Positions 35,898-61,272 of a stretch of DNA of 64,000 nt are shown here, piece after piece. The stretch's first letter is position 1, and each line of letters starts with the position of its first letter. A model generated the notes under the pieces. It was not told the DNA's origin. It did not search any database and worked only from the letters and a program-made list of their open reading frames with translations. Where the stretch lies: NCBI GenBank assembly GCA_030646035.1, contig JAUSMY010000046.1:73072-137071 (forward strand). Direction: 5' to 3'. The position numbers were made by a program, and so were the translations under genes. The DNA comes from Thermodesulfovibrionia bacterium. Lineage in GTDB: Bacteria; Nitrospirota; Thermodesulfovibrionia; UBA6902.

Positions 35898-37378
35898 CGT
35901 ATGAATCCATAAAGTTTTGAGATCAGCGCCCAGATGTCGGAAGGGCGTTTAATATGGTTCTTCAGAGTGTTAATAATTCTTTTCGGGGTGAAATACCAGC
36001 GCAGCATGAGTCTGCGGCGGAGTTTCATGATCTCCCTGGCAGTCAGCTGCGGATAGTCAAGAACAGAGCTGTTGTGTTCCCATTGACTCCAATCTGCTGC
36101 GGATAGCCAACTGTTTTGTACGGCATCATTATAAAGCTGCGTCCCGGGATACGGCATTGCACAATAGTATTGCACAAAGTCGAGATTAAGGGAATTAATG
36201 AATTTAGAGGTAGTTGCAATTGTCGCATATGTGTCAGCAGGAAAGCCGATTATGACATGTCCTGTTACTTGCAATCCCGCTTTTTTTGCCAGGGTGACAG
36301 CGTGGCTGATCTGTTCAAGAGATGTCTGTTTGTTGATCTGGTTGAGAATGTTTTGATCGCCTGATTCTATCCCGAAGGCGATGTTCCAGCAGCCTGCATC
36401 TTTTATAGCCTTTAGTGTTTCGGCATCAACGGCATCAACCCGGCTATTGCAGACCCATTTGATTTGCAAGCCCGATCTGATGATAGCCTGACAGAGCTCC
36501 CTGACAAAATTCTTGTCAAGGATGAATTCCTCAGCCCAGAACATGAAGTTCGTGATCCCGAATCGTGTTACATTGTTATGCAGTTCCTGCATGATGCGAC
36601 CTGCACTGTGCCGGCGGGGAGTGCGGCCGTAGTAAACGTAGGCATTACAGAAGATACAGCGGTAGGGGCAACCCCGGTTTGTGTTGACGAGCAGGAACTT
36701 ATCGTTATTCAGGGGGAGACGGTAGTTTTCAGTATTGATGAAAGACCAATCTGGAACCGGCAGGTCGTCAAGATCCTTAATCGGTTCACGAGGTGCCGTT
36801 ACCACCAGCTGCTCTTTATCGTCAAGAAAGGCTATACCTGGTGTGCTGTGAAGTTTGTCTCCGCCAGCAAGTGCTTCAACAAGGTCACGGGCGGCGAATT
36901 CAGGTTCTCCGATGATGCAGTAGTCCACGCCGTTTTCTGCTTGCAGAATTTCTTTATATTGGCATGAGGGATGGATGCCGAAGAGAACAGTAGCTATGGA
37001 GTTAGGGCTCTCTTCTTTTATGCATGCCGCGGCATATATATCGTCCTCAATTGTGGGGGTGGACGTGTTAATAAAGACAATGTGCGGATCAAATGAACGG
37101 ACATTTGTCAGCATGGTGTGAACCGTGTCTGATGTCGCCGGGCAGTCCATAACATTGACTGTGTGTCCCCGTTCTCGCAGCAAGGTCGCTATGGTGACCA
37201 TGGTGACAGGCGCCATGATATAGCCCCAGGCACCTTTGCGCTGCATGCAACGCCCTTCCTTTACCATGACTATATTGTCTCGCCTAGGCGGGTTGAGTAT
37301 CAGGCAGTTCATGAGTACTGAAAATTGTTTTGCATACTTGACATTATCATAATCATGATGTTTGGCACAACCCGCCAT
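35888..37378 (-). CDS. cobalamin-binding (class B) radical SAM protein #1
   Basis: It has an N-terminal B12-binding domain (LILNPP...) and the CxxxCxxC motif NRGCPYRCIFC. The true start is probably the internal ATG at 37312 (MNCLILNPP). Confidence 0.85.
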   Translation of the reverse strand: MAGCAKHHDYDNVKYAKQFSVLMNCLILNPPRRDNIVMVKEGRCMQRKGAWGYIMAPVTMVTIATLLRERGHTVNVMDCPATSDTVHTMLTNVRSFDPHIVFINTSTPTIEDDIYAAACIKEESPNSIATVLFGIHPSCQYKEILQAENGVDYCIIGEPEFAARDLVEALAGGDKLHSTPGIAFLDDKEQLVVTAPREPIKDLDDLPVPDWSFINTENYRLPLNNDKFLLVNTNRGCPYRCIFCNAYVYYGRTPRRHSAGRIMQELHNNVTRFGITNFMFWAEEFILDKNFVRELCQAIIRSGLQIKWVCNSRVDAVDAETLKAIKDAGCWNIAFGIESGDQNILNQINKQTSLEQISHAVTLAKKAGLQVTGHVIIGFPADTYATIATTSKFINSLNLDFVQYYCAMPYPGTQLYNDAVQNSWLSAADWSQWEHNSSVLDYPQLTAREIMKLRRRLMLRWYFTPKRIINTLKNHIKRPSDIWALISKLYGFIRWM

Positions 37379-37512
37379 TTGAGCTGCCGGTATGCCTGAT
37401 AGGCTTGTGTCAAAATTGCCAGTGAACGCTTCAGCCTGTCTTGGAATTGTCTTAGTGTGCTTATTTGTGGTTTAATAAGAAATTAAATAAGTTATCTTTT
37501 TGAGGTGATCAA

Positions 37513-38337
37513 ATGAAGCTCGAATACATGTATTTTTGGATCGCTGTGGGACTCTACGGCGTTAGCGCATGCAGTTATATCTTCGGTCTTATTGCAAAGC
37601 AGGAGAAACTCTTCACATTCGGCCTGTATAGCGCCCTTGCCGGGTTTGTCCCTCATCTTGTTTCCATCGGACGCCGTTGGATGGAGACAGGGGTTGAACC
37701 GTTTATTACGATATCCGAGTCGATCACCTTCGGAATCTTCGTGGCGGTGCTTATCTTCCTGATATTTCAATTCACTACAAAAAAAATACGGCCTCTCGGC
37801 GTGCTTATCATGCCGGTAGCATTTGTCCTCATGGGATGGGCAGGGACACTTATCAAAGACGCGGCAACAAATCTTGTGCCTGCGCTTCAGAGTTGGTGGA
37901 TCTGGGTACATATAATAGGCGCGGCAACAGGCTTCGGTTCAGTTCTGGCAGCAGCGGGCTTGGGCTTGATGTATCTGCTCAAAGATAAATATTCCGGCGG
38001 CATATATGAACAACTGCCGGAGACTCAGATAATTGAAAATCTTAGTTACAGGTTTGTTGCCGGAGGTTTTATCATGTATGGTCTCATGATAGTATCCGGC
38101 GCCTTCTGGTCGAATACGGTGAAGGGCAGTTACTGGAACTGGGACCCGGTTGAGGTCTGGTCTCTTATCTCCTGGCTTACGTACGGGATATATCTCCATT
38201 TGCGGGCGACCTTCGGCTGGCGCGGCAGGAAGCTGGCGTGGTATGCGCTTATCGCGCTGGCAGCGATGATCATCAGTTACTGGGGAATTCCATTCACTGT
38301 GGAGACGTTTCATGCAGGGTTCCGTATTGAACACTAA
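37513..38337 (+). CDS. ccsA: cytochrome c-type biogenesis protein CcsA/ResC (heme export and ligation)
   Basis: The protein is 274 aa and polytopic. It carries the WWD-type motif GSYWNWDPVEVWSLISW and flanking His residues. Confidence 0.85.
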   Translation: MKLEYMYFWIAVGLYGVSACSYIFGLIAKQEKLFTFGLYSALAGFVPHLVSIGRRWMETGVEPFITISESITFGIFVAVLIFLIFQFTTKKIRPLGVLIMPVAFVLMGWAGTLIKDAATNLVPALQSWWIWVHIIGAATGFGSVLAAAGLGLMYLLKDKYSGGIYEQLPETQIIENLSYRFVAGGFIMYGLMIVSGAFWSNTVKGSYWNWDPVEVWSLISWLTYGIYLHLRATFGWRGRKLAWYALIALAAMIISYWGIPFTVETFHAGFRIEH

Positions 38338-38356
38338 AAAACAGACATAACTGATA

Positions 38357-38449
38357 ACCCCTCTGTATCTCCCCTTGTAAAGGGGCGAATTGTAAATCCC
38401 CTCTTTACCAAGGGGCCAACAGTAGGTGCTTTAAGCAGGGTAGGGGAGG
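38357..38449 (+). repeat. 93-bp structured intergenic repeat, copy 1
   Basis: cccctctgtatctccccttgtaaaggggcgaattgtaaatcccctctttaccaaggggccaacagtaggtgctttaagcagggtaggggagg. It has about 97% identity to copy 2 and contains the hairpin CCCCTT-GTAA-AGGGG and mutually exclusive alternative stems. Confidence 0.75.
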
Positions 38450-38502
38450 TTAATAATAATGTTAATGATATTAAATGAAAAGCTGATGGCTAATAGCTGC
38501 TA

Positions 38503-39849
38503 ATGAAATTAGCGATTATCTTCCCTCCGTTGCCTTTCGGCTGGACGCCTGTGGCGCCTCCGATACTTGAATATCTGGCAGCGCTTACACGTAGAGCTGA
38601 TCCGAGTATTGAGATCGAGCTGATCAGCGCCAGCGCCACTCCTGATGCCTTTGACAAGCTTGAGTGTGACCTCGCAGCCATCAGCATCCTGACTCCTACG
38701 GCAGTGCCGGGTTATCGAATCGCTGAGAAGCTTCGGGCGCGTGGAATTAAAGTTGTCTTCGGCAATATGCACGCTTCTGCCATGCCTGAGGAGGCCAAGC
38801 ATCATGGAGATGCGGTGGTGATAGGCGAGGCAGAATCTGTCTGGCCTGAGGTGCTGCGTGATTTCCGCGCCGGTAAGATGAAGCCGTTTTACCGTGGTGA
38901 ACAGATCTCTCTTGATGACCTGCCCACACCTCTTTACGGGCTTTTGCAAGGTAGCCGCAAACATCAATTCAGGATAGTGAATACATCCCGGGGCTGTCCG
39001 TACAACTGCACCTTTTGCTCGGTCAAACCCTTCTACGGCTCAAAGATACGTTTCCGTCCCATTGAACATGTGGTGCGCGATGTGGCTGCTATTCCTGAGA
39101 AGATGTATATAAACGGTGACGAGAACATCTGGTGGGCAGGCAAGGAGCAGAGGGCGATAGACCTCTTCACAGCGCTCAAGGGAAGCGGCAAGAAGTGGAT
39201 GGGCTTCGGCAGTCTCCGCCCTGTGCAGTCGCCTGCGGGGAAGCGAATGCTGAACGCGGCCCGTGAGAGTGGCATGCTATCTCTGTGGGTCGGTTGGGAT
39301 TCCATCTCAGACGAAGGGTTGAAGGGATATGCAGCCGACGGCAAGATCGGTGTTGACCGCGAGGCAGCGCTGCGCACTCTCAGGGATCATGGAATTGATG
39401 TGTCGCTGTTTTACATGCTTGGGTCGCGTGAGGATTCTCTTGATGATTTCAAGCGTTCCATAGAGGTTGCAGACCGGCTCGGAGTAAGCATGCATCCGTC
39501 ATTGGTTGTGCCTTATCCCGGGACAAAACTTCGTGAGCAGTATGAACCTTATCTTTATAAGGAGCTTGGCTGGGAATATTATACCGGCGCATACGCGCTT
39601 TTCGAGCATCCTGACCCCGCTATGACGCCTGAGGTGCGTGAGCAAAAGTTCTATGAAAGCGCGCTTGAAATTTTGAGCCTGCCGAGGGTGTTGCGCCATA
39701 TGTTCAAGGTTCCATTGGCCGGCTTTCCTCATGCCCACATCCTTTCACTCATGTCCCAAATACCTGTACGGCATGGCATGAAGATTGCGTATAATAAATG
39801 GAAAGATTCAAAAGAATCTGTAAATAAAAAGAGATTTAGTTACAGATAG
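38503..39849 (+). CDS. cobalamin-binding (class B) radical SAM protein #2
   Basis: The N-terminus MKLAIIFPPLP is a B12-domain start. The CxxxCxxC motif is TSRGCPYNCTFC. Confidence 0.85.
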   Translation: MKLAIIFPPLPFGWTPVAPPILEYLAALTRRADPSIEIELISASATPDAFDKLECDLAAISILTPTAVPGYRIAEKLRARGIKVVFGNMHASAMPEEAKHHGDAVVIGEAESVWPEVLRDFRAGKMKPFYRGEQISLDDLPTPLYGLLQGSRKHQFRIVNTSRGCPYNCTFCSVKPFYGSKIRFRPIEHVVRDVAAIPEKMYINGDENIWWAGKEQRAIDLFTALKGSGKKWMGFGSLRPVQSPAGKRMLNAARESGMLSLWVGWDSISDEGLKGYAADGKIGVDREAALRTLRDHGIDVSLFYMLGSREDSLDDFKRSIEVADRLGVSMHPSLVVPYPGTKLREQYEPYLYKELGWEYYTGAYALFEHPDPAMTPEVREQKFYESALEILSLPRVLRHMFKVPLAGFPHAHILSLMSQIPVRHGMKIAYNKWKDSKESVNKKRFSYR

Positions 39850-39949
39850 TAGGAATTGGCTTACAATTATGTAACAATTTTGTTGTTATGTATGACAGGT
39901 TTGTGTTCTAACTGAATTTATTGCCTTGGGAATTAAAGGAGAACCTATT

Positions 39950-41446
39950 ATGACCAATAAAGATATGGAGAATGAACGTCATCGCCTGACAGAAGATGTC
40001 CTCAGATTTATAGAAGCCGGGGTTGATGCCGATATTCCGGATTTTAATGATTACTGCATGAGGATGTTCGCCATGCACTATGAGAGCAATAAAATATTCC
40101 GTGAGTTCTGCGACGTGAAGAAGGTCAAGCCTGGCGACATCAGCCGATGGGAAGATGTTCCCATGGTCTATAACGATATGTTCAAGACGCATCTTGTTGC
40201 CTCATTTCCTCTGGAGCAGTCTGTTATGTCCTGTCTTACAGGAGGGACAACAAGCCTTACCCAGCGTGGACGCATCTTCCGGGATGAGGATGGCAAGCGC
40301 CTCGTATTTGCGGCAAACAAGATGATGACCGGTTCTTATCTGTTTCCTGATTTCGAAGATGGGAAGCGCTGCCGTATCCTTATCCTTGCACCGAGCCCGG
40401 AGCTTGCTCCGTCAATGGGAATGGCGATAGGCATGGACCAGACGCGCAGAGCTTTCGGAACGCCTGACAGTATGTTTTTGTTAGGCAAGTCAGGGATACA
40501 TATCAATGAACTTTTAAAGGCCCTGCGGGAGTCTGAAGCGAGCGGAGTGCCGGTTGCGCTGATAGGAGCGACATCTGCATATGTGTACTTTTTTCAGGCA
40601 TGCCGCAGAAAGAAGATGAAGTTCTGCCTGCCGCCCGGAAGCCGCATATGCGACGGGGGAGGATACCGCGGCAGATTCGGGCCTGTTAGCCGTGAGGATT
40701 ATTACGGGATGGTGCAGGAGATACTTAACATACCGGAATCCCATTGTGTAAATGTTTTAGGTGAAGCTGAGACTGCGACCAACCTTTTTGACGATGCTTT
40801 GCGCCGCCACATAAAGGGACTTCCGCCGCGCAAGCGCACGAGGCCTGTGCCGCCATGGGCGCGTGTCCGGGCAATGAGTATTGACGACCTCAGCCCTCTG
40901 CCGGATGGTGAGGTCGGCCTCTTTGCGCATTGGGATCTTGCAAATGTTCCTACTGTTCTGGCAGTGATCACTGATAACCTCGGCTATACGACAGATGACG
41001 GCCGCGGCTGCGAGATGGTGGGCCGCGCGAAGATCGAGGGAGGTAAGGTATCTCCGCTGCCTGATGAGGAGGCCGCAAGCCCGATGGGAGATTCGGCCAT
41101 CTTCCGTATGCTTGAGAAGTATGTGCATTTCACGATCGACCTTAAGATGCAGATGGCAAAGGACCCTAAGGTTGAACCGAGCGTGCGTGAGGAGATAGAG
41201 GCGAGGCCCGGTTCTGTCGCGTCATGCCCGCAGGTTGTTGACGAGATACTTGTAGCGCAGGCTGATGCCGAGGCAGCCGAACTCAGGGACAGATCTCTGG
41301 GCGCATTTAAGGATCAGACCGAGCGTCCTCTGGACTGGTATGCTGATGAGGAGAAGAAGCAGGTGCTTGCAGACCATCCTGCCGGTCTAAAGTCTGAGAA
41401 GCATGAGAAAGACGCTTCGAAGAATAAGGCAAAGAATAAAGAATAA
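39950..41446 (+). CDS. LuxE-like acyl-protein synthetase / adenylate-forming enzyme with a Lys/Glu-rich tail
   Basis: An aaggag RBS lies 7 nt before ATG 39950. The motifs WEDVPMVYNDMFK, CLTGGTTS and DGGGYRG parallel the LuxE motifs IPVFPTSVFK, SSGTxG and GGGWK. Confidence 0.55.
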   Translation: MTNKDMENERHRLTEDVLRFIEAGVDADIPDFNDYCMRMFAMHYESNKIFREFCDVKKVKPGDISRWEDVPMVYNDMFKTHLVASFPLEQSVMSCLTGGTTSLTQRGRIFRDEDGKRLVFAANKMMTGSYLFPDFEDGKRCRILILAPSPELAPSMGMAIGMDQTRRAFGTPDSMFLLGKSGIHINELLKALRESEASGVPVALIGATSAYVYFFQACRRKKMKFCLPPGSRICDGGGYRGRFGPVSREDYYGMVQEILNIPESHCVNVLGEAETATNLFDDALRRHIKGLPPRKRTRPVPPWARVRAMSIDDLSPLPDGEVGLFAHWDLANVPTVLAVITDNLGYTTDDGRGCEMVGRAKIEGGKVSPLPDEEAASPMGDSAIFRMLEKYVHFTIDLKMQMAKDPKVEPSVREEIEARPGSVASCPQVVDEILVAQADAEAAELRDRSLGAFKDQTERPLDWYADEEKKQVLADHPAGLKSEKHEKDASKNKAKNKE

Positions 41447-41456
41447 AGAAAAGACA

Positions 41457-41549
41457 CCCCTCTGTATCTCCCCTTGTAAAGGGGCGAATTGTAAATCCCC
41501 TCTTATCCAAGGGGCCAACAGTAGGTGCTTTAAGCAGGGCAGGGGAGGT
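41457..41549 (+). repeat. 93-bp structured intergenic repeat, copy 2
   Basis: It has the same sequence as copy 1 apart from three substitutions (cttatcc for ctttacc, gggcagg for gggtagg). It lies 32 nt upstream of ORF 41581. Confidence 0.75.
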
Positions 41550-41580
41550 TTAGGATAATGTATTTGGTCTTTATTGAACT

Positions 41581-41922
41581 ATGAAAAAAACATTGACCAT
41601 AATTATCGGTTTTGTGCATGACTTTGCTGCCGGCTGCTGGGCAGCGACTGTTCTTGCGATATATTGGCTAAGCAGTCATTCCTTTCCGGTTGAAGTCAGC
41701 GGCATAATGTTTGAACTGAAAAAGCAGCTCTTCTGGGCAGGGATAGCATGTGTTGTTATAGTTTTTGCCACAGGCACGGGCAGATCTTTTACCTATGTTG
41801 ATAATGTCTACGGCAAGGATGCGGAAAAGGCAAGAAGAAGGCTGCTGATCATAAAACACGTTATCCTTATTGTTGTTTTTGGCTCCGGTATTTTCTGGCA
41901 GTACACGATGGTTTTTTGGTAG
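41581..41922 (+). CDS. small 3-TM membrane protein, hypothetical
   Basis: The protein is 113 aa with three hydrophobic helices. It is followed by rSAM #3. Confidence 0.45.
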   Translation: MKKTLTIIIGFVHDFAAGCWAATVLAIYWLSSHSFPVEVSGIMFELKKQLFWAGIACVVIVFATGTGRSFTYVDNVYGKDAEKARRRLLIIKHVILIVVFGSGIFWQYTMVFW

Positions 41923-42007
41923 AGCACTCCTATCTTCCTAAAACATTATCAAACCACCGGTCATTTACTTGCTCAATGGTATCTGAATTGCTTAAAATAG
42001 TGACACT

Positions 42008-43468
42008 ATGAAAAAGATAAGAAAAGTTATGCTTATTACTCCGCCTTACCACTCCGGAGTTGTTGAATCCGCAGGTGTCTGGCTGAATGTTGGTTTTGTC
42101 TATATTGCAGGGAGCCTCAGGGTTGCGGGATATGACCCGATTTATTATGATGCCATGAGCCACTGGCATGGATATGATGAGATCGGGAAGAGGATTAGAG
42201 AAGAGAAACCTGATGTTATTGGGACAACCGCTTTTACCGCAGAGATCGTTGAGGCGCTAAACCTCCTGAAGTTTTCCAAAGAGATAGACCCTAATATTAT
42301 TACTGTGATCGGCAATGTTCACCCTACGTTCTGCTACGATGAGATATTCAAAGACCACCACTCATGCGTTGATTATATTGTGCGTGGTGAGGGTGAAGAG
42401 ACGATGGTGGAGCTTCTGGATGCGCTTAATTCCAATGGCGACCTGTCAAAGGTAAGGGGCGTAGTATACATGGATAAGGGGAAGGTCGTGGTCAATGATT
42501 CAAGGCCGTACATACATGACCTTGACAGCCTGCCCATGGCATGGGACCTGGTCGATTGGCCGATTTATAAATACAAGGCCATGGAGAATTCCATAATGGC
42601 TATTGTCAGCTCTTCAAGGGGATGCAACCAGCAGTGCAGCTTCTGCTCGCAGCAGCTCTTCTGGCAGAGAAACTGGAGGGGCCGAAGCGCTGAGAACTTT
42701 GTAGCCGAACTTGAGCACCTGAGAGACACCTATGGCGTAAATGTCGTGATGCTTGCTGATGAGACTCCCACGCTTTCAAGAACAAGGTGGGAGAAGATAC
42801 TGGATCTTCTCATTGAGAGGAAGGTAGGCGTGAAGCTGCTTCTTGAGACGCGCGTTGATGACATAATCAGGGACGAAGATATCATGTGGAAATACCGGGA
42901 TGCCCTTGTAGACCATATTTATCTCGGAGTGGAATCGACCTCACAGGAGGCGCTTGATAAGTTTAAAAAGAATATTAAAGTAGAGGAATCAAAGCGCGCG
43001 CTTGACCTTATAAACTCGTATGATATTGTCACAGAGACATCTTTTGTGCTCGGTATGCCTGGTGATACTGTTGAGAGTATAAGGGAGACGGTTGAGCTTG
43101 CCAAGTTCTATAATCCTGACCTTGCGTTCTTCCTTGCAATAGCCCCATGGCCTTATTCAGAGATATATCCTGAGCTTAAGGACTTTGTGGTGACAAACGA
43201 CTACAGTAAATATAATCTTGTTGAGCCTGTGGTAAAACCGAAGAATATGACCATCGATGAATTGAGGGATGAACTTGGAAGGGCGTCAAGGGTGTATTAC
43301 ATGCACAAGCTTGAGACCCTTGACTCGATGACCGAGAAGAAACGTGAGTTCATGATAAAGGTCATTCATATCATCTCTACAAGCTCTTACCTTGCGGAGA
43401 CGATGAAGGGCACATCAATGCCTGAGGATATAAAGAAACTGCTTGCGAAACTGCACCATAAAACTTAA
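42008..43468 (+). CDS. cobalamin-binding (class B) radical SAM protein #3
   Basis: The N-terminus MKKIRKVMLITPPYHSG is a B12-domain start. The CxxxCxxC motif is SSRGCNQQCSFC. Confidence 0.85.
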   Translation: MKKIRKVMLITPPYHSGVVESAGVWLNVGFVYIAGSLRVAGYDPIYYDAMSHWHGYDEIGKRIREEKPDVIGTTAFTAEIVEALNLLKFSKEIDPNIITVIGNVHPTFCYDEIFKDHHSCVDYIVRGEGEETMVELLDALNSNGDLSKVRGVVYMDKGKVVVNDSRPYIHDLDSLPMAWDLVDWPIYKYKAMENSIMAIVSSSRGCNQQCSFCSQQLFWQRNWRGRSAENFVAELEHLRDTYGVNVVMLADETPTLSRTRWEKILDLLIERKVGVKLLLETRVDDIIRDEDIMWKYRDALVDHIYLGVESTSQEALDKFKKNIKVEESKRALDLINSYDIVTETSFVLGMPGDTVESIRETVELAKFYNPDLAFFLAIAPWPYSEIYPELKDFVVTNDYSKYNLVEPVVKPKNMTIDELRDELGRASRVYYMHKLETLDSMTEKKREFMIKVIHIISTSSYLAETMKGTSMPEDIKKLLAKLHHKT

Positions 43469-51867: not shown

Positions 51868-52989
51868 TCAGTTCTTTTTGAGCCGTTTACTGTCTGTCAT
51901 TGTTACTATGATATAAAATGCGACCAGGAAAGTTATTGTGACGGCAAGCGCGCCTGTCCATCCTAACAGGTCAGGCAGGAAAATATTACTGCCGGTGATC
52001 TTTATTCTTGAAGACATGAAAGGCATCCACAAACCAACCGCAAGCATTGCGCCTAATATTGCAAAGAAATGTTTGATATGTCCCTCGGCTGACCGCCGGA
52101 GAATTCCGACTACTCACCCGTCTGACAGCACCATGCCGAATCCGAATATCATGCCGCCTATTATGCTGTGCAGCCCGGCAGGCATTACGAATGTTGAGGC
52201 CGGTTTTAATGAAGAAGCTTTGATAATGCTGAAACCGATAACGCCTATGATAAGGCTTATTATCACTCCGCGCATCATTTCATAATTCCGTGAAATGAAC
52301 AAGTCCCGGAACGCTGATGAAAAACCAAAGGAGGCGCGCTGAAATACCAATCCAAATGCCATACCGAAGATCAATATGCCTGCGAGGCTGCCTTTGCCGT
52401 TTACAGAGTAGGCCACGATAATTATAGAAATTAAAATGATGACAAGAAATCCTATTAAAGGTGTTCGTGATAAAGATTTGTTATTGCTGACACAAGATGC
52501 CGGGCTTCCTTGCTTCTTTGATAACAGGAGTTTACCACCGAGATATCCGCCTGCGATCAAACCAACCATCATGTAGAACCCGCTTAATGACAGAGCCATG
52601 ATCGATGAAAAAAAACCACCGACAATACAGGAGCCTGCGATCAGGCTGCCGATTCCCATCAGCACACCGCCTGTGAAACTTTTAGAACATTCACCTGCAC
52701 CGGATTTCGTAATTTTAAATTCTCTTGAAAGCAGGGCGCCGACCAATGCGCCTAAAAACAAGCCGACCGTTATAAGGTTCTTAATATCATATTGCGCCGG
52801 TTCCAGAGGACCCCATGGTGATTCAATATTTATACCTGCAAGCTTGTAAGTCCAAATTCCCCATGTCCCCATTGCGGGATACACAGCTCCCAGCGGCATT
52901 AAATATATAAAGAAGGCGATGTTGAGCAATCCCAACAGCACACCGCCAACCCACTTGGGCCATTGTTTCGTAAATAATTTATTATACAT
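51868..52989 (-). CDS. YeeE/YedE-family (sulfur/selenium transport) membrane protein with an in-frame TGA at 52114-52116, a putative selenocysteine codon (373 aa if read through)
   Basis: The first half carries the family motif AGSCIVGG. The 291-aa ORF stops at TGA exactly where the second repeat's equivalent motif would be (SDG-U-VVGIL). The reading frame then continues uninterrupted for 81 more TM-like residues with no RBS or start codon. A hairpin CUCCGGC-GGUCA-GCCGAGG begins about 12 nt downstream of the UGA. Confidence 0.55.
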
Positions 52990-53039: not shown

Positions 53040-53303
53040 TTATGGACTCTTATTAGTATCTTTCAGGATCTCCGCCTTTAATTCATCGTATGTAACAGTG
53101 CCGTTCTGCACGATGAAACGATCGTTGAGCATAACAGAAGGGCATGGCGGCGGATCTTTTTCCATCCAATATTCATTGGATGACTTTTTAATCACAACAA
53201 CATCTACGCCGAACTCTTGATTTGCCTTCCAGGCAACCTGAGTGTTCTGCTGTCAACGAGTACCCATCGGTTCGTTTACATATAGCTTAATGGTGTTTTT
53301 CAT
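53040..53303 (-). CDS. small thioredoxin-fold (ArsC/Spx- or glutaredoxin-like) protein with an in-frame TGA at 53253-53255, a putative selenoprotein (87 aa)
   Basis: A strong GGAGGA RBS is present. The protein reads MKNTIKLYVNEPMGTR-[TGA]-QQNTQVAWKANQEFGVDVVVIKK...PPPCPSVMLNDRFIVQNGTVTYDELKAEILK. The TGA sits in the loop after beta-strand 1, where redox-active Cys/Sec residues of this fold are found. A hairpin begins about 12 nt after the UGA. Confidence 0.4.
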
Positions 53304-53330
53304 TTTCATTTCCTCCTTTAAATTGTGTAA

Positions 53331-54590
53331 CTAAAATTCATATCTCATTTGCCAGTAAATATTATCGTTCTTATCCAACTGCCCGAACTGATTCCATTCT
53401 TCTCCGCCTCCGAAGATATTTGCTCCAACCGCCGCCCATATGGAATCGGAGAAGTTGTACTTAACCTCAGGGTTTAAGAGGTAATCGCTGTCAGTCGGGC
53501 TGTAGAAAGAGAAGAGGGAGAGCCTTAGGGTTTGATGTATCAAAAATTGTGTCAGCCTCACAGAGGCAAGATCATGCAGCTTATTCTCGTGCGGAAATCC
53601 GGCAGGGAGGTACTTCTCGTACTCCGGATATTTGTGCATATATTCGCCGTAATATTGAAGACCGATGGTAAAGTCTTCCCACATCTGTCTCTGGAAGCCG
53701 ACAAGGAATTTCGTTTGTGAATTTGGCATCATCGGGTCTGTGCCGTCACTATCCTGTCTTGAATCGTAATATCCCGCCTCAAGGCTCAGGACACCATCCA
53801 ATGCTCTCCCCTGTAAGCTTGCTCCATAAACAGATAGTTCAGGGTAAAAGAACTCGATCTTTGTCGGAGCAGTCATGCTGTCCGGAAGCATGGAAGGCTG
53901 TCTGGAAAACCCGCGATAAAAATACAGAGACGCATCAAAACCTGAAACATCACGATATATCCTGAATGCAACTTCAGTATTTTCAAGAGTTGCGGTTGGC
54001 TCTTTCTCCACACGATTTGCAATAGACGGCATCGGGTCGAACATGTGGAATCTCTTCTGCTCAGGGAAATTGTTCGGTTCAAAAAATGGAACGATAACCA
54101 ATTCCGCAGAGGCAAAGGATGGATACACGCCGATCTTTATACCATCGACACCTTTTTTTAAATACTCCATTGGCCTGCCTGAGAAGAACGCCTCATAGTC
54201 TTTTGGAAATACATCGTTTATAAAAATCAAATCTCCAAGCCCCCACGTGATGACCTGTCTGCCAAGCCTCATATCCCACATGGAAGAAGTGTAATCAACA
54301 TATCCTTCCCTTAACTCTATTTCGGCTTCTTCATCAACATGGTCATAAAAGGCGTCTGTCTTCAGAAAGAGATGGAATGCTTCTTTATTCGCATCAAGTT
54401 TGATCTGCAATCTTTCCTCAGCCCATTTGAAGTCCTTGCCGTCAGGATTTGATGAGTTGGTGTCTACAGAATAGTTTCCCTGTAAGAAGCCATGCAGTGA
54501 AATATCATCTGCTGTTGCAAACGATGATGATAGCGCAAAGAAAAAGCACGATACGAAACAACCGATAAAAAATCTGTTTTTATTTTTCAT
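53331..54590 (-). CDS. putative outer-membrane beta-barrel protein
   Basis: A signal peptide follows MKNKNRFFIGCFVSCFFFALSSSFA. Alternating amphipathic strands are present, and the C-terminus is ...YWQMRYEF with a terminal Phe, the OMP signature. The start is placed at 54590 to avoid overlap with the methyltransferase gene. Confidence 0.5.
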   Translation of the reverse strand: MKNKNRFFIGCFVSCFFFALSSSFATADDISLHGFLQGNYSVDTNSSNPDGKDFKWAEERLQIKLDANKEAFHLFLKTDAFYDHVDEEAEIELREGYVDYTSSMWDMRLGRQVITWGLGDLIFINDVFPKDYEAFFSGRPMEYLKKGVDGIKIGVYPSFASAELVIVPFFEPNNFPEQKRFHMFDPMPSIANRVEKEPTATLENTEVAFRIYRDVSGFDASLYFYRGFSRQPSMLPDSMTAPTKIEFFYPELSVYGASLQGRALDGVLSLEAGYYDSRQDSDGTDPMMPNSQTKFLVGFQRQMWEDFTIGLQYYGEYMHKYPEYEKYLPAGFPHENKLHDLASVRLTQFLIHQTLRLSLFSFYSPTDSDYLLNPEVKYNFSDSIWAAVGANIFGGGEEWNQFGQLDKNDNIYWQMRYEF

Positions 54591-54597
54591 TTTGCGC

Positions 54598-55260
54598 CTA
54601 TACTGATTTGTCTGCCCGGATACAAACAAAACCCGCATCTTTTACCAATCTGTTATTTGCAACTTCTTTCCCAGGCTTAACTGATGGAGGCTGACATAAT
54701 GTTGACGAATACGAATCAACTCTCAAGCCTGCCTTCTCTATCATCTCTTTAACTTCATTGACGCTATAAAACTTTGCATACTTGTATATAGAGTGTCCTT
54801 CTGCTTTTTTTCTCGCATACAGCTGACCCCATAAACTTTCCTTGTTTATTATCCCGGCGATAAGCCCTCCGTTTTTCTTCAAAACCCTTTTTGCCTCAGA
54901 GATCACCTTCTCAGGATTTTCCACAAAGCAGAGCGTAAACAGTATAAATACGCCTCCAAAAGATTCATCTTTAAAAGGCAGTTTATCTCCTGAAGCTGTC
55001 TCGGCCTTTATCCCGCGCATCTCCGCTATCTTTAAAACTTCTTTAGAAGGATCAATGCCGTACTCAATACCCAATGCTTCTGCAAATCGTCCCGTTCCTA
55101 CTCCGATTTCGAGGAAGGGATGTTCAAGTCCTTTCATCAAAAGCCTTGCTGACGCGGCCTCCAGTTCAAAAAGCACTTTGCCTTCCGCACTATCAAACCA
55201 CTTATCGTAATCCCCGGCATGCTTGTCAAAGGCTTCAACATCAGAACTCATTCCACCCAC
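54598..55260 (-). CDS. class I SAM-dependent methyltransferase
   Basis: Motif I is LEIGVGTGRFAEAL. The protein is 220 aa. Confidence 0.8.
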   Translation of the reverse strand: MGGMSSDVEAFDKHAGDYDKWFDSAEGKVLFELEAASARLLMKGLEHPFLEIGVGTGRFAEALGIEYGIDPSKEVLKIAEMRGIKAETASGDKLPFKDESFGGVFILFTLCFVENPEKVISEAKRVLKKNGGLIAGIINKESLWGQLYARKKAEGHSIYKYAKFYSVNEVKEMIEKAGLRVDSYSSTLCQPPSVKPGKEVANNRLVKDAGFVCIRADKSV

Positions 55261-56036
55261 TTCTTCGGCGGCTGCTTTAAGAATCGTTCGCTGAACAGGC
55301 TGTCTTCTATCCCGATGTTGTAATCCGTTTTCGTATAGGTAACCTCTGTCCTGTGTCCGCTTGCCAGGTTTTTCATCGCTCTCTTTGTGATTGTCGGAAT
55401 ACCTTTAACATCTTGTATTTCATCAGCGCTGAAGACTCTGTAGAGTTCGCCTTTTTTGTCATAATACTCTTCTTTCAGCGGCAGGAAACTGACCTTGTCA
55501 ATCCATGAGAGTTTGTAACTGTAATCAACATCCTGAGCCTTTGGAGAGCTTTTTATAACATAGCACTCTTTTGTATCAAGTCTTTCCTCTTTTGCAATAG
55601 CATGGTTATCATCTTCCACATCCCGTCCCGAAACATCTTCATATGTAAAATCAGAGCCGACAAAGCTTGAGCTTTTGTCCTGCGCGGCAATCCGTCGAAC
55701 CATGTTGATCGCAGGCACAAAGAGCCACCTGTCATCGTCTTTAGCAGGGAATTTGTAAACCATGAACGTCATGTCTTTCACGTCAGCAGGCTGATAGAAG
55801 TACATGAAATATTTCTGCTCTCCGCCAGACGCGCCGTAATTCTTTCTCAGCATTGTAAGTTCCCTGACTCTCTCCTGTCCGCTTTTGCTGATAAGCTTCA
55901 TCATGACCCTTGCCTTGAAATCCTTGCCTTGATAGAAGAAAGCTTCCTGAGATTTTTTAACAGCTTCCTCCGCAGTCAGGGCAAAGACATTTAACGGCAT
56001 TAACAGTACAACCAATAACATCAGATATCGCTTCAT
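55248..56036 (-). CDS. LolA-like periplasmic lipoprotein-carrier-fold protein (outer membrane lipoprotein-sorting-like)
   Basis: A gggagag RBS and the signal peptide MKRYLMLLVVLLMPLNVFA are present. The gene is immediately downstream of the RND exporter gene, a common pairing. Confidence 0.55.
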   Translation of the reverse strand: MKRYLMLLVVLLMPLNVFALTAEEAVKKSQEAFFYQGKDFKARVMMKLISKSGQERVRELTMLRKNYGASGGEQKYFMYFYQPADVKDMTFMVYKFPAKDDDRWLFVPAINMVRRIAAQDKSSSFVGSDFTYEDVSGRDVEDDNHAIAKEERLDTKECYVIKSSPKAQDVDYSYKLSWIDKVSFLPLKEEYYDKKGELYRVFSADEIQDVKGIPTITKRAMKNLASGHRTEVTYTKTDYNIGIEDSLFSERFLKQPPKKWVE

Positions 56037-56037
56037 T

Positions 56038-58353
56038 TTAACTCTCCCTTTTGAAAAGCCAGCCTTGCAGTAAAACAATAAGAGCTGGCAGATAAATTAT
56101 TGTCATTATCGCGCTGAGCAGCATCATGCTGACAATGAAAGCGCCCACAGTTATATACGGGGTTAACGGCGCGAATATCATTACGGCAAAGGATGCTGCA
56201 AAGAGTATTGCGTTGCGCATTATCCCTTTCCCGGGACGCGCTGCTGTCCAGAGCAATGCGTCAGAAAGAGTTTCGCTCCCCTTCGTTTCGGTCATGCGTT
56301 GCCTGAGCCTGCTCACAAAATGGATAGCAAAGTCCACCGCCATGCCGAGAGAGAGGCAGGAAAGAACAGAGATCGGCATATCAAAGTCCTTGCCGATAAA
56401 GCCGACAACTCCATAGATAAACAGTATTGTGAAGAGAAGCGGGGTATATCCGACAATAGCCCATTTGACGGATCGGAAGTCAAAGGCAAGGATGGCAAAT
56501 ACGGCTATCAATGCAATAATAAAGCCCGTTACCATGTCCCATAACACCTCATCATTCCAGACAAGGTTGAAGTAGGCGATACCCGACGGCTTCAATTCCA
56601 TAGCAACAGGATGGGCAGTCTTGTACTCATCCATCGCCTTTATCACCTCCCTCATTGCCTGCGCGTCCCATGTCTTCAACTGCACCCAGATGTTCGCTTT
56701 TCTGAACGGGTAGTCCACAACATTGTCCAGATCAGCGGGCTTTGCAGACATTGAGAAGAGGAAGATATACTGCCCGATCATCTCCTTTGTCTCAGGGACA
56801 ACATCATATTTAGGGTCATTGTCATGAAGGACAAGGTTAATCCGCTTCACGTAGTCAACAACCGAAGTTGTCTTGCCGACAACAGAGAGTTTTTCAAGGT
56901 GCTGCTGAAGCCCCTCGATATAGCGCATCGCCTCAGGGGTTTTTATGAAATCATCTTCTTCTGCAGTCGCGACGACATATGCCATTGAGGTGCCGCCGAG
57001 AGAACTGTTTATGACCGTATCGGCTATACGAACATCGCTGTCCTTCTTGAACCATTCCACCAGATTATTATTGACATTCATTTTTGTTACCCCGACAATT
57101 GCTATCGCACAAAGCACAAGGCCGGCGATGACCGTAGCCTTTGGACTATGCGTGCCTATTGAGGCAAGCTTCTGTAATAAACTCGAAGTCCTGCTTGAGC
57201 CGATGTCTTCCGCATGAGCGATCTTTTCTATCTGCTCATCTTTCACAAAGGTGAACATGGCCGGGATAAAGCTGAAACTCAAGATCCGCAGGACGATAGT
57301 GCCGAATGCCACAACACCGCCAAAGACCTGTACCGGGATAATATTCATAAAAAGAAGCACGCCGAAACCGACGGCTGTTGCCAATGCGGTGTTGCGGACA
57401 GGGCGGCTCACAGCTCGCATTGTCTCGATTATTGCGGCCTTTTTGTCTTTCTTCTCCCTGTAGCGGAAGTAGAACTCGTTGAATATATGCATGCTGTCTG
57501 TTGCGATAGCCATAAGAAAGACAGGCGCCATTGAACTCATGATATGAATAGGGTAGCCAAGGCCAATAAGAAGTCCCATGCTCCAGACGATGCTGACCAT
57601 GGCGTCCATCATCAGCGTAATGGAGAGGAAAAGGTCTCTGAACATGAGATACCTGACAAGAAGCATGACCATTCCTGCAATCGGGGCAAAGATCGCCATG
57701 AGCTTGAACATCTCAGCTCCGAAAGTATCCCGTGCTACAGGATCGCCTGCTACGTAATATTTTTCATCGCCTGTTTCTTTCTTCAATATCTTTTTTATCT
57801 CATCGGCGATCTCTTTTCCGTTTGATCCTTTTTCAAGAGGGACATATATGGCGGTAGTCTTTCCATCCTTTGAGATAATTTTGTCAATGAATAGCGGGTT
57901 TTCAAACAGCATCTTCCTGAGTGACTCTATCTCCGCCTCACTTTTTGGAACTTCTGTCATGAGAGGAGCGACCCGCAGCGTGCCTGCTTCGGCAGTTACA
58001 TTGGTAATAGTCGGAAAGCTGTTTACATCTCTGGCAGCAACGCCCTTAAGTTTTAATATTTCATCTGTGATCCTCTGGACCTTTCCGAGGGTATCTTTGT
58101 TGAGAACGCCTTTTTCATTCACAATCCCGACCACGATCATGTCTTCATAAAGGCTGAAGGTCTTTTCTACTTCGTCATTCCACATCCTGACATCTGATGT
58201 CTCAGGGAGCATGCTTTTGGGGTTCGTGTCAGTCTTGATCTTCGTAAACTGGGTCGCAAACGCAAGTGTGATGATAATCGTAAGCAGTACGATTAGTTTT
58301 GGATGTTCAACAGAAAATTCAACAAGGGAAAACTTACGCATGCATACCTCCAC
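56038..58353 (-). CDS. RND-superfamily exporter (MMPL/SSD-type, 12 TM, two large periplasmic loops)
   Basis: The protein is 771 aa with two 6-TM bundles in the classical RND/MMPL arrangement. Confidence 0.85.
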   Translation of the reverse strand: MEVCMRKFSLVEFSVEHPKLIVLLTIIITLAFATQFTKIKTDTNPKSMLPETSDVRMWNDEVEKTFSLYEDMIVVGIVNEKGVLNKDTLGKVQRITDEILKLKGVAARDVNSFPTITNVTAEAGTLRVAPLMTEVPKSEAEIESLRKMLFENPLFIDKIISKDGKTTAIYVPLEKGSNGKEIADEIKKILKKETGDEKYYVAGDPVARDTFGAEMFKLMAIFAPIAGMVMLLVRYLMFRDLFLSITLMMDAMVSIVWSMGLLIGLGYPIHIMSSMAPVFLMAIATDSMHIFNEFYFRYREKKDKKAAIIETMRAVSRPVRNTALATAVGFGVLLFMNIIPVQVFGGVVAFGTIVLRILSFSFIPAMFTFVKDEQIEKIAHAEDIGSSRTSSLLQKLASIGTHSPKATVIAGLVLCAIAIVGVTKMNVNNNLVEWFKKDSDVRIADTVINSSLGGTSMAYVVATAEEDDFIKTPEAMRYIEGLQQHLEKLSVVGKTTSVVDYVKRINLVLHDNDPKYDVVPETKEMIGQYIFLFSMSAKPADLDNVVDYPFRKANIWVQLKTWDAQAMREVIKAMDEYKTAHPVAMELKPSGIAYFNLVWNDEVLWDMVTGFIIALIAVFAILAFDFRSVKWAIVGYTPLLFTILFIYGVVGFIGKDFDMPISVLSCLSLGMAVDFAIHFVSRLRQRMTETKGSETLSDALLWTAARPGKGIMRNAILFAASFAVMIFAPLTPYITVGAFIVSMMLLSAIMTIIYLPALIVLLQGWLFKRES

Positions 58354-58392: not shown

Positions 58393-58815
58393 TTAAAACG
58401 TCAGATTCATATCCGCCTTGATAACAACATCTTTATAATATGTGGCCGGGTCAGCTACCTCTACACCATCAACAAAATCCTGCTTGGTCATGCCAAAGAG
58501 CGGGACGTTCAAGGGACATGCAAGCAGCTTCGCTCCCTCTTTGTAGAGCATGAAAAGCAGATCTTCAACCGACGGGAGGTTCATTTCATCCATCCTCGCC
58601 ATAACAGCATCGCCTTCTTCTTTAGGTTGGTCCGGCAGGCAGACAAGTGTGTTTACCTTGTCCTTATGAAGGGCGTTGACCCCGCGCGACCCGAAGAACA
58701 TTGTGACATTAGAACCCTCTTTCAGGAGGCTGTACGCGGTCATGAGGGCATTGTAAACCTGGCACAGTTCATCGTGGAAACACATAATCGAAACGTTTTT
58801 GATAACCTTTTCCAT
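58393..58815 (-). CDS. DsrE/DsrF-like family protein
   Basis: VSIMCFHDELCQVYNALMTAYSLLKEGSNVTMFFGSRGVNAL resembles the DsrE-fold N-terminal motif. Confidence 0.65.
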   Translation of the reverse strand: MEKVIKNVSIMCFHDELCQVYNALMTAYSLLKEGSNVTMFFGSRGVNALHKDKVNTLVCLPDQPKEEGDAVMARMDEMNLPSVEDLLFMLYKEGAKLLACPLNVPLFGMTKQDFVDGVEVADPATYYKDVVIKADMNLTF

Positions 58816-58851: not shown

Positions 58852-59592
58852 TTATTTTCCCGTCAATATCTGGTACCACATTCTTAGACCTGTTATTGCG
58901 ATAATAACGGCAATTGCCAGGCGGAGGTATTTGGTATTTACTTTCTTACTCATCTTCCCGCCGAATTGCGCCCCCGGTATTGTGCCGATGACAAGCGCTA
59001 TCGCATATGGCCATAGTATCTGTCCGGTAGTCATCTTGCCTATGGTTCCCATGAGTGCGCCCAGAAAGACGATTCCAAGCGTACTGCCTATTACAATGCG
59101 TGTCGGAATGTTAAGCAGATATATCATTGCCGGGATGTAGATGAAAGCTCCCGGCGCACCGACCATGCCGCCGAAAGTGCCTATCAAAAGGCTTAAGAAT
59201 ATCGCAAGCGGTTTGTTATATTGAAGGTCATCAGGTGAGATATCCTCTCCCTGCTCACGCTTTGGAATGAACATTGTCACTGCAGCTATAACAGCCATTG
59301 TAGCAAAGATAGCTAACAGGAAAGAGCTTTTGGAAGTTTTTGAGAAGAGAGAACCTGCAAGATTACCTATGGCATTGCATACTCCCATGTAGAGAAGGAG
59401 AGACTTGCTCACAAAACGGTTTTTATTATGAACGATAACAGCTGTCAGGGATGCTGACAGCACCTGCACCATACTGATGGCGGCAACCTGCTTCATGTCA
59501 AACTGCCCGACACCGACCAGGCCGAGCAGTCCGGATAAGAAACCTCCGCCAAGACCGAGTATTACGAGTGTGATCAATAATTGTATTTCCAT
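58852..59592 (-). CDS. TauE/SafE (TSUP, DUF81) sulfite/organosulfur exporter family membrane protein
   Basis: The protein is 246 aa with a 4+4 TM repeat and Gly-rich helices. Confidence 0.85.
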   Translation of the reverse strand: MEIQLLITLVILGLGGGFLSGLLGLVGVGQFDMKQVAAISMVQVLSASLTAVIVHNKNRFVSKSLLLYMGVCNAIGNLAGSLFSKTSKSSFLLAIFATMAVIAAVTMFIPKREQGEDISPDDLQYNKPLAIFLSLLIGTFGGMVGAPGAFIYIPAMIYLLNIPTRIVIGSTLGIVFLGALMGTIGKMTTGQILWPYAIALVIGTIPGAQFGGKMSKKVNTKYLRLAIAVIIAITGLRMWYQILTGK

Positions 59593-59636: not shown

Positions 59637-60882
59637 TCAACGCCGTATTTTTTTGTAATCACCGTACATGGTCTTTTCAAGAAGCATGGCCATTGGTTTT
59701 TTTAAAAACGATTCTGACAGCCAGTGTTTTTCAAATATGACCTTTCCTAAATGCCACAATGGAGAAGGCTTGCGCATTTTTACCTGTGGATTCGGAGTAG
59801 CGTAGAAATTCCCGGAGCCGAACCCGGCTGTACCATCTCCGATCTCTATGAAACAGCCTCCTTCTCCCGTATATTCCGCTTTTTCTCCGATCCCCAAAAT
59901 CTCATTTGCAATATTTTCAGCCACAACTTTTGCTTCAAAATGGGCAAAAACCCCTGCCTTGGGAAGCATCAGAGGCATACCCGGCTTCCACTCTGGGTAT
60001 CTTGACCTTGGCTACATCTCCTATGGCGTAGACATTTTCAAATTGAGTTTTTAATGTATCTTTATCCGCTGGTATCCAGTCATCAGTCAATCCTGATTCT
60101 CTGATGACCTTGGGGGATTTGTGAGGAGGAACTACCAATAATAGATCATAGTTTGCCTTCCCTTTGTCAAAAGTTATTTCCTTTTGTTCTGCATCTATTG
60201 AGGCAACCTTGTGCTCAAAATTGTATTCTATTCCCGCTTCTCCAAGCATCTCTTTTATCATATTTCCCACAGCAGGCCCGGCAACCGGCATTGGCAGTGG
60301 TTCGGGAGCAAATATTTTCACATTAACATTATTTTCAAGGCCTCTCTTTCTAAAGATATCTTTCAGCAGGAAGGCGGTTTCATAGGGTGCAGCCGGACAT
60401 TTGTAAGGCATGGAAGAAACAAGGACTACTATGTTCCCGCCGGAGAAGTTCTTTATACTGTCTCTCGCTTTCAGTATCCCGTCTAATGTGTAAATATTGC
60501 AGGCATCTTTTTTTAAGGCGTCTTCAAGGCCTGGCACTGCATCGGGAAATAATGAAGCGCCGAGAGAGATCACAAGGTAATCATAGGCGATCTCTTTCTT
60601 TTCGGTTTTGACTGTTTTGTTTTGAGTATCGATCTTTACGATATCTTCATTTATAAGATCAATGCCGCTCTCGATCAGTCTTGAGATGTCTTTTTTGATT
60701 TCTTCCGGTTGTCTGTCTCCGCACATTACCCAGAGAAAGGAAGAGGCAGATATATGCTCTTTGCTTTTATCTACTATTATTATCTTGTGTTCATTTCCTA
60801 ATTTCTTCCTGAGATCATTAGCCGTAGTCAATCCGCCAACTCCTCCGCCTAAGACTACGATCGTTTTTCCATCGCTTCCCAT
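59637..60882 (-). pseudogene. sqr: sulfide:quinone oxidoreductase-like FAD-dependent pyridine-nucleotide-disulfide oxidoreductase, interrupted by a single frameshift near 59960-59985
   Basis: The N-terminal ORF (60882..59935) carries VVLGGGVGGLT FAD binding and ...AIGDVAKVKIP. The C-terminal ORF (59978..59637) begins ...LPKAGVFAHFEAKVVAENIA...GEGGCFIEIGDG, the conserved SQR C-terminal region, in the +1 frame. Together they give a full-length enzyme of about 415 aa. Confidence 0.7.
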
Positions 60883-60924: not shown

Positions 60925-61272
60925 TTATCTCTTTCTTTTCCCGGGGTAGGTACCTTTTTTTGACACAGGGCAGCATTTGGGCCCGGGTAGATCCTCGGAA
61001 TATTCCTTATTTAATATATGAATGATATCCAATGCTAATGGACTCTTCAGGAAGTAGCATCTTAATCTGCCGTCAATAAAAAAATCGATGATCCCGGCGC
61101 TCCTGAGCTTTGACAGGTGCTGAGATATATTTGGCTGACTCACATTGTCAAGAAAGTCTTCGAAATCGCTTACGCACTTAACACCATTGGAGAGTTCGGT
61201 CAGGATTTTTATTCTGACAGGATGGGTAATGGCCTTGAGTATCTCAATACGCAACAATATATCTTTTGTCAT
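60925..61272 (-). CDS. ArsR/SmtB-family transcriptional regulator (SqrR/BigR-like sulfide-responsive repressor candidate)
   Basis: The wHTH is HPVRIKILTELSNG...SQPNISQHLSKLRSAGII. Cys residues lie in the DNA-binding domain and the C-terminal tail. The gene heads the sqr-tauE-dsrE gene string. Confidence 0.8.
   Translation of the reverse strand: MTKDILLRIEILKAITHPVRIKILTELSNGVKCVSDFEDFLDNVSQPNISQHLSKLRSAGIIDFFIDGRLRCYFLKSPLALDIIHILNKEYSEDLPGPKCCPVSKKGTYPGKRKR

Follow-up and report, generated by a model that had tools for sequence, protein, structure and literature searches.

A TsoC-family selenoprotein gene beside a UGA-containing YeeE gene in a Thermodesulfovibrionia contig

The selenoprotein family TsoC, whose motif is written GxxU, is listed among the families of Haft & Tolstoy (2025) in a 2026 review (PMC13188914), which also lists a YeeE/YedE selenoprotein family. 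TsoC has been named since 2025 and is without experimental characterization. Here, we describe a further member in an unusual context: an 87-codon gene with an in-frame UGA on the minus strand of a 64,000-nucleotide stretch of DNA from a Thermodesulfovibrionia bacterium (assembly GCA_030646035.1, contig JAUSMY010000046.1, positions 73,072 to 137,071). The whole stretch is referred to as the window and its own numbering is used throughout. A first-pass annotation made from the letters of the window had proposed the gene as a candidate selenoprotein; the protein family is not new, as NCBIfam already names it TsoC.

The nearest described system is the NCBIfam equivalog model NF045708, 'NEPxGxxU motif selenoprotein TsoC'. 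The window protein shares its motif (NEPMGTRU at residues 10-17 is an exact NEPxGxxU), its length (87 profile positions, 87 residues), the selenocysteine (Sec, U) at GxxU and an ArsR-type regulator in the cluster; it differs from the core TsoC proteins in belonging to a sister clade with a second cysteine in a PPPCPSV motif. MtH895/Thioredoxin_3 (TIGR00412, PDB entry 1ILO) has the same size and the same minimal thioredoxin topology, with a CxxC redox motif where the window protein has GxxU (GTRU) plus a Cys before the presumed cis-Pro. In YeeE-YeeD (S. thermophila, PDB entry 8K1R) and YedE-YedF, too, the gene of a YeeE/YedE protein has beside it one for a small cytoplasmic protein that bears a reactive chalcogen residue. 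YedF and YeeD, however, are TusA/SirA-like with a CPxP motif, whereas the window protein has a predicted thioredoxin fold and no CPxP. The persulfide/sulfite operons of the BigR/SqrR/cst type presumably consist of an ArsR-family repressor, SQR, TauE and sulfurtransferases, the same families as in the cluster described here. An ArsR-family repressor (next-best model BigR), an SQR-like protein, TauE and DsrE/rhodanese carriers are shared with that type; unlike it, the present cluster type has several selenoprotein components and an added methyltransferase and RND/LolA-like/outer-membrane-protein exporter, and no persulfide dioxygenase was seen in the cluster.

The gene comprises the following features, including a hairpin of the selenocysteine insertion sequence (SECIS) type.
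53040..53303, minus strand: coding sequence of the TsoC-family selenoprotein, 87 residues with U as residue 17 (from the sequence, the NF045708 match and orthologs).
53311..53316, minus strand: Shine-Dalgarno sequence GGAGGA, 7 nt 5' of the ATG at 53303 (direct sequence reading).
53253..53255, minus strand: UGA codon 17, read as selenocysteine (TGA/Cys column in related loci).
53222..53236, minus strand: SECIS-type apical hairpin UUGCC-UGGAA-GGCAA, starting 16 nt after the UGA (comparative pairing and covariation).
53142..53144, minus strand: codon of Cys54 in the PPPCPSV motif, before the presumed cis-Pro; candidate partner of Sec17 (alignment invariance and inferred fold position).

The open reading frame (ORF) runs from the ATG at 53303-53301 through TGA as codon 17 to the TAA at 53042-53040 and translates as MKNTIKLYVNEPMGTR, then the UGA codon, then QQNTQVAWKANQEFGVDVVVIKKSSNEYWMEKDPPPCPSVMLNDRFIVQNGTVTYDELKAEILKDTNKSP and the stop. 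When the sequence was re-read, the frame, the GGAGGA ribosome-binding site, the ATG, the TGA at 53253-53255 and the TAA at 53040 were all found as first annotated, and the translation given for them agreed letter for letter. A second in-frame ATG is present two codons upstream (53309-53307); it lies only 1 nt from the ribosome-binding site, so that the ATG at 53303 is the sensible start. The standard ORF listing gives just a 51-codon GTG-start fragment of the gene, and the public annotation of an overlapping Logan contig omits it entirely. A reading of the letters alone had thus recovered a true selenoprotein gene that is skipped or shortened in public gene calls.

A word-indexed protein search (query with U replaced by C) gave nine relatives of 63-86 residues. 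At the UGA column seven of these have Cys (N[DE]PxGxxC), one begins just 3' of it and one (P0001) has a 'W' for which the underlying DNA is TGA. Related loci were then collected from GTDB (one genome per species; 21 loci, nearly all from metagenome-assembled genomes of Nitrospirota/Thermodesulfovibrionales) and from metagenomes (50 further loci) using peptide patterns that included PPPCPSV and that therefore sample the PPPCPSV clade. The column holds TGA in 17 of 19 and Cys in 2 of 19 full-length GTDB copies; the corresponding numbers for the full-length metagenome copies are 34 and 7 of 41. Pooled with the window and other contigs, 65 loci, mostly of Nitrospirota/Thermodesulfovibrionales, divide into 53 with TGA and 12 with Cys (TGC/TGT), a conservation of the TGA column far beyond chance. 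Identity to the window protein is 46-70% and extends over both sides of the UGA codon; the motif of the relatives is N[ED]PxGxx[U/C]. An unbiased hidden Markov model (HMM) search of 1.84 billion representatives returned just 40 clusters at E <= 0.001, from which the TsoC-like family is rare; many of the entries begin just 3' of the UGA and some have variants of the second motif. The first-pass annotation had placed the UGA at a catalytic-Cys position of a candidate selenoprotein gene and had set the alignment of Cys homologs across the UGA as a test that could refute this. The alignment puts the UGA on a conserved Cys with a conserved ORF 3' of it, and the claim holds.

The SECIS analysis was performed on the 48 nt from the UGA, aligned across the Sec-type loci (45 distinct sequences; stem columns 20-24 and 30-34). 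The 5-bp stem is paired in 96.9% of cells, and was also seen in an 18-sequence version of the alignment. Compensatory changes are present at pair 21/33 (CG 29, UA 7, AU 6, UG 2), none of 500 shuffles reached the observed pairing or covariation score, and all slid stem registers fell to 23-49% paired. Loop position 26 is G without exception and the next nucleotide is G or U, a pair that we take to resemble G23-U24 in the SECIS loop of E. coli fdhF. The element is thus a stem-loop shortly 3' of the UGA with a G in the apical loop, as in bacterial SECIS elements. In all Sec forms at least 4 of the 5 stem pairs are retained, against 1-4 (median 2) in the 12 Cys forms, a contrast that is not fully independent of phylogeny because the Cys forms are partly a separate clade. 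Folding of the region as a single sequence was indistinguishable from shuffles (z = -0.9), so that the element is revealed by comparative analysis only. A different hairpin, UCAGG-UUG-CCUGG, had been named in the first-pass annotation. It is present in the window, but with 38% of cells paired it is not above controls and is not conserved; the SECIS search that the annotation called for therefore did find a conserved hairpin after the UGA, at 53236-53222 and not at the place named. An Rfam scan of the window returned two tRNAs and no other family match.

These data bear directly on what the TGA is. If the locus were a pseudogene or two short ORFs (a 16-codon leader and the 51-codon GTG-start ORF), the TGA would be a plain stop. 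Standard callers do stop at the TGA, public calls omit or shorten the gene and many relatives are annotated from just after the UGA, yet the TGA stands at one column in 53 loci from many different metagenome-assembled genomes and metagenomes, with conservation on both sides of it. In addition, both halves belong to one thioredoxin fold, strand beta-1 and NEPxG precede the TGA, the Cys forms are continuous ORFs and the SECIS-type hairpin is conserved. The plain-stop explanation is effectively refuted by this combination, and we give it hardly any credence. Recoding of the UGA to a residue other than Sec, either to Cys by a tRNA-Sec-like tRNA(Cys) or to Trp or Gly by an alternative code, is also very improbable. 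A tRNA-Sec-like gene with a GCA anticodon does lie 7 kb from a TsoC-like gene on a related contig (locus L020, described below), and the database entry P0001 gives W at the codon. A GCA anticodon, however, pairs with UGC and UGU and not with UGA, and the W is a gene-caller artefact. TGA is an ordinary stop in many window genes, for example that of the LolA-like protein, and the hairpin has bacterial SECIS features and is lost in most Cys forms.

At the level of sequence, the gene is a genuine TsoC-family selenoprotein gene. UGA17 would be recoded to selenocysteine by the standard bacterial route, with SelB and Sec-tRNA(Sec), directed by the hairpin that lies within the coding sequence 16 nt after the UGA. 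The finding leaves knowledge of the genetic code and of Sec decoding unchanged.

The match to NF045708 was obtained at 50.4 bits (E 1.7e-13, profile positions 2-84 of 87), for which the curated cutoff is 45 bits. Scores of 33-44 bits were obtained for six other members of its clade. Paralogs encoded alongside clade members in the Nitrospirota operons L010 and L016, with F-P instead of C-P and without Cys54, reach 54-78 bits. From these scores, the window protein is a borderline-passing member of a PPPCPSV sister clade of TsoC. Cys54 is invariant in the alignment of relatives, and the sister clade appears to have acquired, or retained, this second Cys.

The fold was modelled with AlphaFold2 on the Cys homolog P0002 (63% identical; predicted local distance difference test score 87.9). 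The topology of the model is beta(5-10), alpha(16-32), beta(35-40), alpha(44-47), beta(57-60), beta(63-67), alpha(73-82), and the window protein is accordingly predicted to be a minimal thioredoxin fold (beta-alpha-beta-alpha-beta-beta-alpha). Foldseek comparison of the P0002 model with the PDB gave thioredoxins, including MtH895 (1ILO; TM 0.66 over 77 residues). Helix 1 (residues 16-32) carries, as its third residue and within its first turn, the P0002 Cys equivalent to Sec17. By the convention for thioredoxin folds, Sec17 would occupy the position of the second Cys of CxxC, with Gly at the first position giving GxxU, and Cys54 would lie just before strand 3, at the presumed cis-Pro loop facing the active site. 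So placed, the two residues could be joined as a selenenylsulfide or could together bind a chalcogen or metalloid atom, and Cys54 would serve as the resolving or co-ligating residue in the PPPCPSV clade.

Sequence profiles place the protein near the MtH895 type only weakly. It has the thioredoxin fold of about 75-85 residues of that family, but over residues 15-77 it scores 13.4 bits against a cutoff of 24.8 with Pfam Thioredoxin_3 (PF13192) and 14.9 against 62 with TIGR00412 (MTH895/ArsE), and it has no CxxC. A sequence-profile search of solved structures returned only spurious matches to designed repeat proteins. The protein had at first been likened to ArsC, Spx and glutaredoxin. The thioredoxin-type beta-alpha-beta start is borne out; ArsC and Spx are not, with no HMM match at E <= 1 and none among the top 50 Foldseek matches in the PDB. 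Similarly, the UGA does fall on a conserved-Cys column in an active-site motif, as had been proposed, but this would be the second CxxC position and not an ArsC-type NPRC loop.

The gene is found at the end of a cluster with the following members.
60925-61272, minus strand: ArsR/SmtB-type regulator at the cluster head (HMM).
59637-60882, minus strand: SQR-like flavoprotein, split by a 1-nt frameshift (HMM).
58852-59592, minus strand: TauE/SafE-family anion permease, elsewhere a usual immediate neighbour of TsoC (HMM).
58393-58815, minus strand: DsrE2-like sulfur carrier, elsewhere a usual immediate neighbour of TsoC (HMM).
56038-58353, minus strand: MMPL/HAE3 RND exporter (HMM; same set near TsoC in many relatives).
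55248-56078, minus strand: LolA-like protein (HMM; same set near TsoC in many relatives).
54598-55260, minus strand: S-adenosylmethionine methyltransferase (HMM; same set near TsoC in many relatives).
53331-54638, minus strand: outer-membrane protein with weak DUF1302 similarity, ending 27 nt 5' of TsoC (HMM).
51868-52989, minus strand: YeeE/YedE-family membrane protein with an in-frame UGA at 52116-52114, 50 nt 3' of TsoC (Pfam Sulf_transp, 5.6e-43).

No promoter- or terminator-like sites were found on the minus strand around TsoC, between the genes of the outer-membrane protein, TsoC and YeeE. The outer-membrane protein and TsoC are probably in one transcript, and the gaps of 27 and 50 nt together with the lack of a minus-strand terminator indicate that TsoC is probably also co-transcribed with YeeE.

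In the relatives, an ArsR gene lies immediately 5' of TsoC in about 55 of about 76 loci. The gene immediately 3' of TsoC encodes TauE in about 37 of these loci; in about 15 it encodes a DsrE with Sec, with DsrF- and DsrH-like genes next in line. Farther 3' are SQR-like, DsrE2 and methyltransferase genes and the same RND/LolA-like/outer-membrane-protein set. Compared with this arrangement, TsoC in the window has been displaced from the position after the regulator and now lies at the far end of the cluster. Two fusion proteins support a link to sulfur/selenium transfer and to metal binding, as judged from their domains: P0049 joins a signal peptide, a TsoC-like domain and two rhodanese domains, and P0020 joins a TsoC-like domain and an MbdU-like/DUF5714 Cys-rich domain.

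No match to TsoA (LULAxC), TsoB (rhodanese/DsbD-like), TsoX or TsoY was obtained in the window by model scans of the neighbours, and neither LULAxC nor HSGNPxU is present in the window or in loci L001-L024. The window regulator scores 29 bits with the TsoR model (cutoff 115). The window TsoC thus appears not to be encoded with other Tso selenoproteins and TsoR. The PPPCPSV clade does nevertheless occur in a true Tso context. In L020 (7995-9932, plus strand; a Nitrospira metagenome-assembled genome) the genes of ArsR, a TsoC-like protein with U, TsoY with U and a rhodanese with U are consecutive, and the TsoC-like gene adjoins those of TsoY and the Sec-rhodanese. The TsoY protein matches NF047643 at 468 bits, is SLAC1/TehA-like by Pfam and carries U in MWAIVUALVG; the rhodanese has U at its catalytic position (KIVVIUIFNNRS).

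A tRNA gene of 95 nt is present on the same contig (15122-15216, plus strand), 7 kb from this operon with its three U-containing genes. It scores 44.4 bits with Rfam tRNA-Sec (gathering score 47) and has a GCA (Cys) anticodon; similar tRNA-Sec-like tRNA(Cys) species are known from the literature.

The gene neighbourhoods lead us to infer that TsoC is a partner of permeases that uses Sec for sulfur/selenium redox chemistry or relay. It would trade either sulfane sulfur or selenium, or else reducing equivalents, with DsrE-type carriers and a membrane permease for chalcogen anions. That permease would be TauE in the majority of relatives, TsoY (itself a selenoprotein) in a single one and the Sec-YeeE/YedE-like protein in the window; an ArsR/BigR-like repressor would control the whole set. 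Taken together, a cytoplasmic selenoprotein of thioredoxin fold, a TsoC recoded through the SECIS hairpin that acts as a sulfur/selenium relay partner of permeases, is the account that we consider probable. The constant association of the family with an ArsR regulator, an anion permease and DsrE carriers, several of which are themselves selenoproteins, points to a selenium-dependent sulfur/chalcogen-oxyanion module of anaerobic Nitrospirota.

The same cluster may be read in terms of metals and metalloids. TsoC would then use its Sec to chaperone or reduce species of As, Sb, Hg, Te or Se; it would be induced through ArsR/SmtB and would feed the methyltransferase and the RND pump. The window regulator passes the ArsR/SmtB metalloregulator model (60.5 bits, cutoff 55) and carries a C-terminal CC motif; its next-best model, however, is the sulfite sensor BigR (40.7 bits, below cutoff). 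The methyltransferase at 54598-55260, with weak ArsM-type matches, and the RND/LolA-like/outer-membrane-protein exporter recur in the cluster, whereas no ArsB-, Acr3-, ArsC- or MerA-type gene was seen in the clusters examined. Also in keeping with this role are the Cys-rich tails in which some members end (P0035 and P0048; tails in the family include GCKSVGGCCSL and CGSQQCCGH), the MbdU-like metal-binding fusion, the weak HMM similarity of TsoC to the 'MTH895/ArsE' thioredoxin-like family and the relation of TsoY to SLAC1/TehA. TehA is linked to tellurite resistance. The most constant neighbours, on the other hand, are of sulfur families (TauE, DsrE/DsrE2, Sec-DsrEFH, SQR-like, rhodanese), and we regard the metal(loid) role as rather unlikely.

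Several points weigh against the relay account set out above. The ArsR-type regulator, the methyltransferase, the RND exporter and the Cys-rich tails fit a metal(loid) role equally well. The margin by which the window protein passes NF045708 is small, and its six relatives of the same clade fall below the cutoff. Core TsoC paralogs are without Cys54, which excludes a Sec-Cys couple as a mechanism common to the entire family. Because PPPCPSV was among the retrieval patterns, neither its invariance nor the neighbourhood counts can be extended beyond this clade. Finally, neither selA, selB, selC or selD nor a tRNA-Sec was found in the 64 kb of the window, and Sec decoding in this organism is for that reason deduced. 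Indirect evidence of a Sec context is provided by the second UGA gene of the window (YeeE) and by several Sec-type genes on related Nitrospirota contigs; no further UGA-containing gene was found in the window besides YeeE.

A more specific proposal may be put forward tentatively, as possible rather than probable: the PPPCPSV TsoC-like proteins would be distinct Sec-Cys chalcogen carriers of Nitrospirota, in the role held elsewhere by TusA/YedF/YeeD, taking up sulfur or selenium on the cytoplasmic side of interchangeable anion permeases (TauE, Sec-TsoY and, in the window, Sec-YeeE) and handing it on to Sec-DsrE/DsrE2 carriers. If true, this would be a sulfur-trafficking pathway with selenols as successive active sites. 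The new elements of the present work are modest, namely the PPPCPSV sister clade, the occurrence beside Sec-YeeE, peculiar to this genome, and the regular linkage to a regulator and a permease.

The YeeE frame runs through the TGA at 52116-52114 (SDGUVVG, residue 292) for 81 more codons, and the public gene calls split it into pieces of 291 and 59 residues. The protein is colinear with the YedE/FdhT model NF033796 (143 bits, below the cutoff of 350), and U292 falls on the conserved LAGGC Cys when aligned with S. thermophila YeeE. The proposal of two adjacent genes, each with a UGA at a Cys position, is thereby confirmed. The further suggestion of a pair analogous to YedE-YedF was not borne out as a conserved pairing: YeeE is adjacent to TsoC in none of the 21 GTDB loci, 50 metagenome loci or 5 other contigs (about 76 in all), where the recurrent partners are ArsR, TauE and DsrE-like. 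The wider idea, a small Sec redox protein that acts with a membrane transporter of chalcogen anions, is in keeping with these data. The sole YeeE-like match near TsoC in a relative is weak and 4.6 kb away (L004). A partner of YedF/YeeD type, with a TusA-like fold, CPxP and conserved adjacency, was not found in the window protein. The Sec-YeeE neighbour nevertheless provides a natural pair for asking whether small Sec proteins service membrane transporters.

Multi-selenoprotein operons were observed at L010 (8001-10376, plus strand), L016 and L041. Their order is ArsR, TsoC-like (U, PPPCPSV), TauE, a second TsoC paralog (U, without the second Cys), DsrE with an active-site U (VFLUGGC), DsrF-like, DsrH-like and SQR-like.

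Downstream of the closest GTDB relative of the window TsoC, in L014 (813-1568, plus strand), come a secreted DsrE-like protein and a GrdB/PrdB-like ORF whose frame contains a TGA (FLTPTU); no homolog of this GrdB-like selenoprotein was found in the window. On the contig of the 80%-identical relative P0001 (L028, 1-330, plus strand), the C-terminus of a TusA-like protein and a truncated DsrE2-like remnant lie 5' of the TsoC-like gene.

The frameshift in the SQR-like gene of the window lies near 59985-59995, with the junction …VKIP / EWKPGMPLMLPKAGVFAH…, and the same split is present on the overlapping Logan contig; sequencing error, decay to a pseudogene and programmed frameshifting are candidate causes. 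The two parts score 226 and 35 bits with NF049943 'type III SQR, selenoprotein subtype' (cutoff 525), and the protein has Ala where the Sec of the NF049943 HxxU motif would sit.

Elsewhere in the window, a run of very large ORFs (790, 160, 1191, 1478, 1883 and 1431 residues) is found at 9310-30245 on the plus strand; the first of these (790 residues) contains NHL and PKD repeats and is probably of surface/adhesin type. The region 35888-43468 contains B12-binding radical SAM genes (35888-37378, 38503-39849 and 42008-43468) together with a LuxE-like acyl-protein synthetase (39926-41446), a group apparently unrelated to TsoC.

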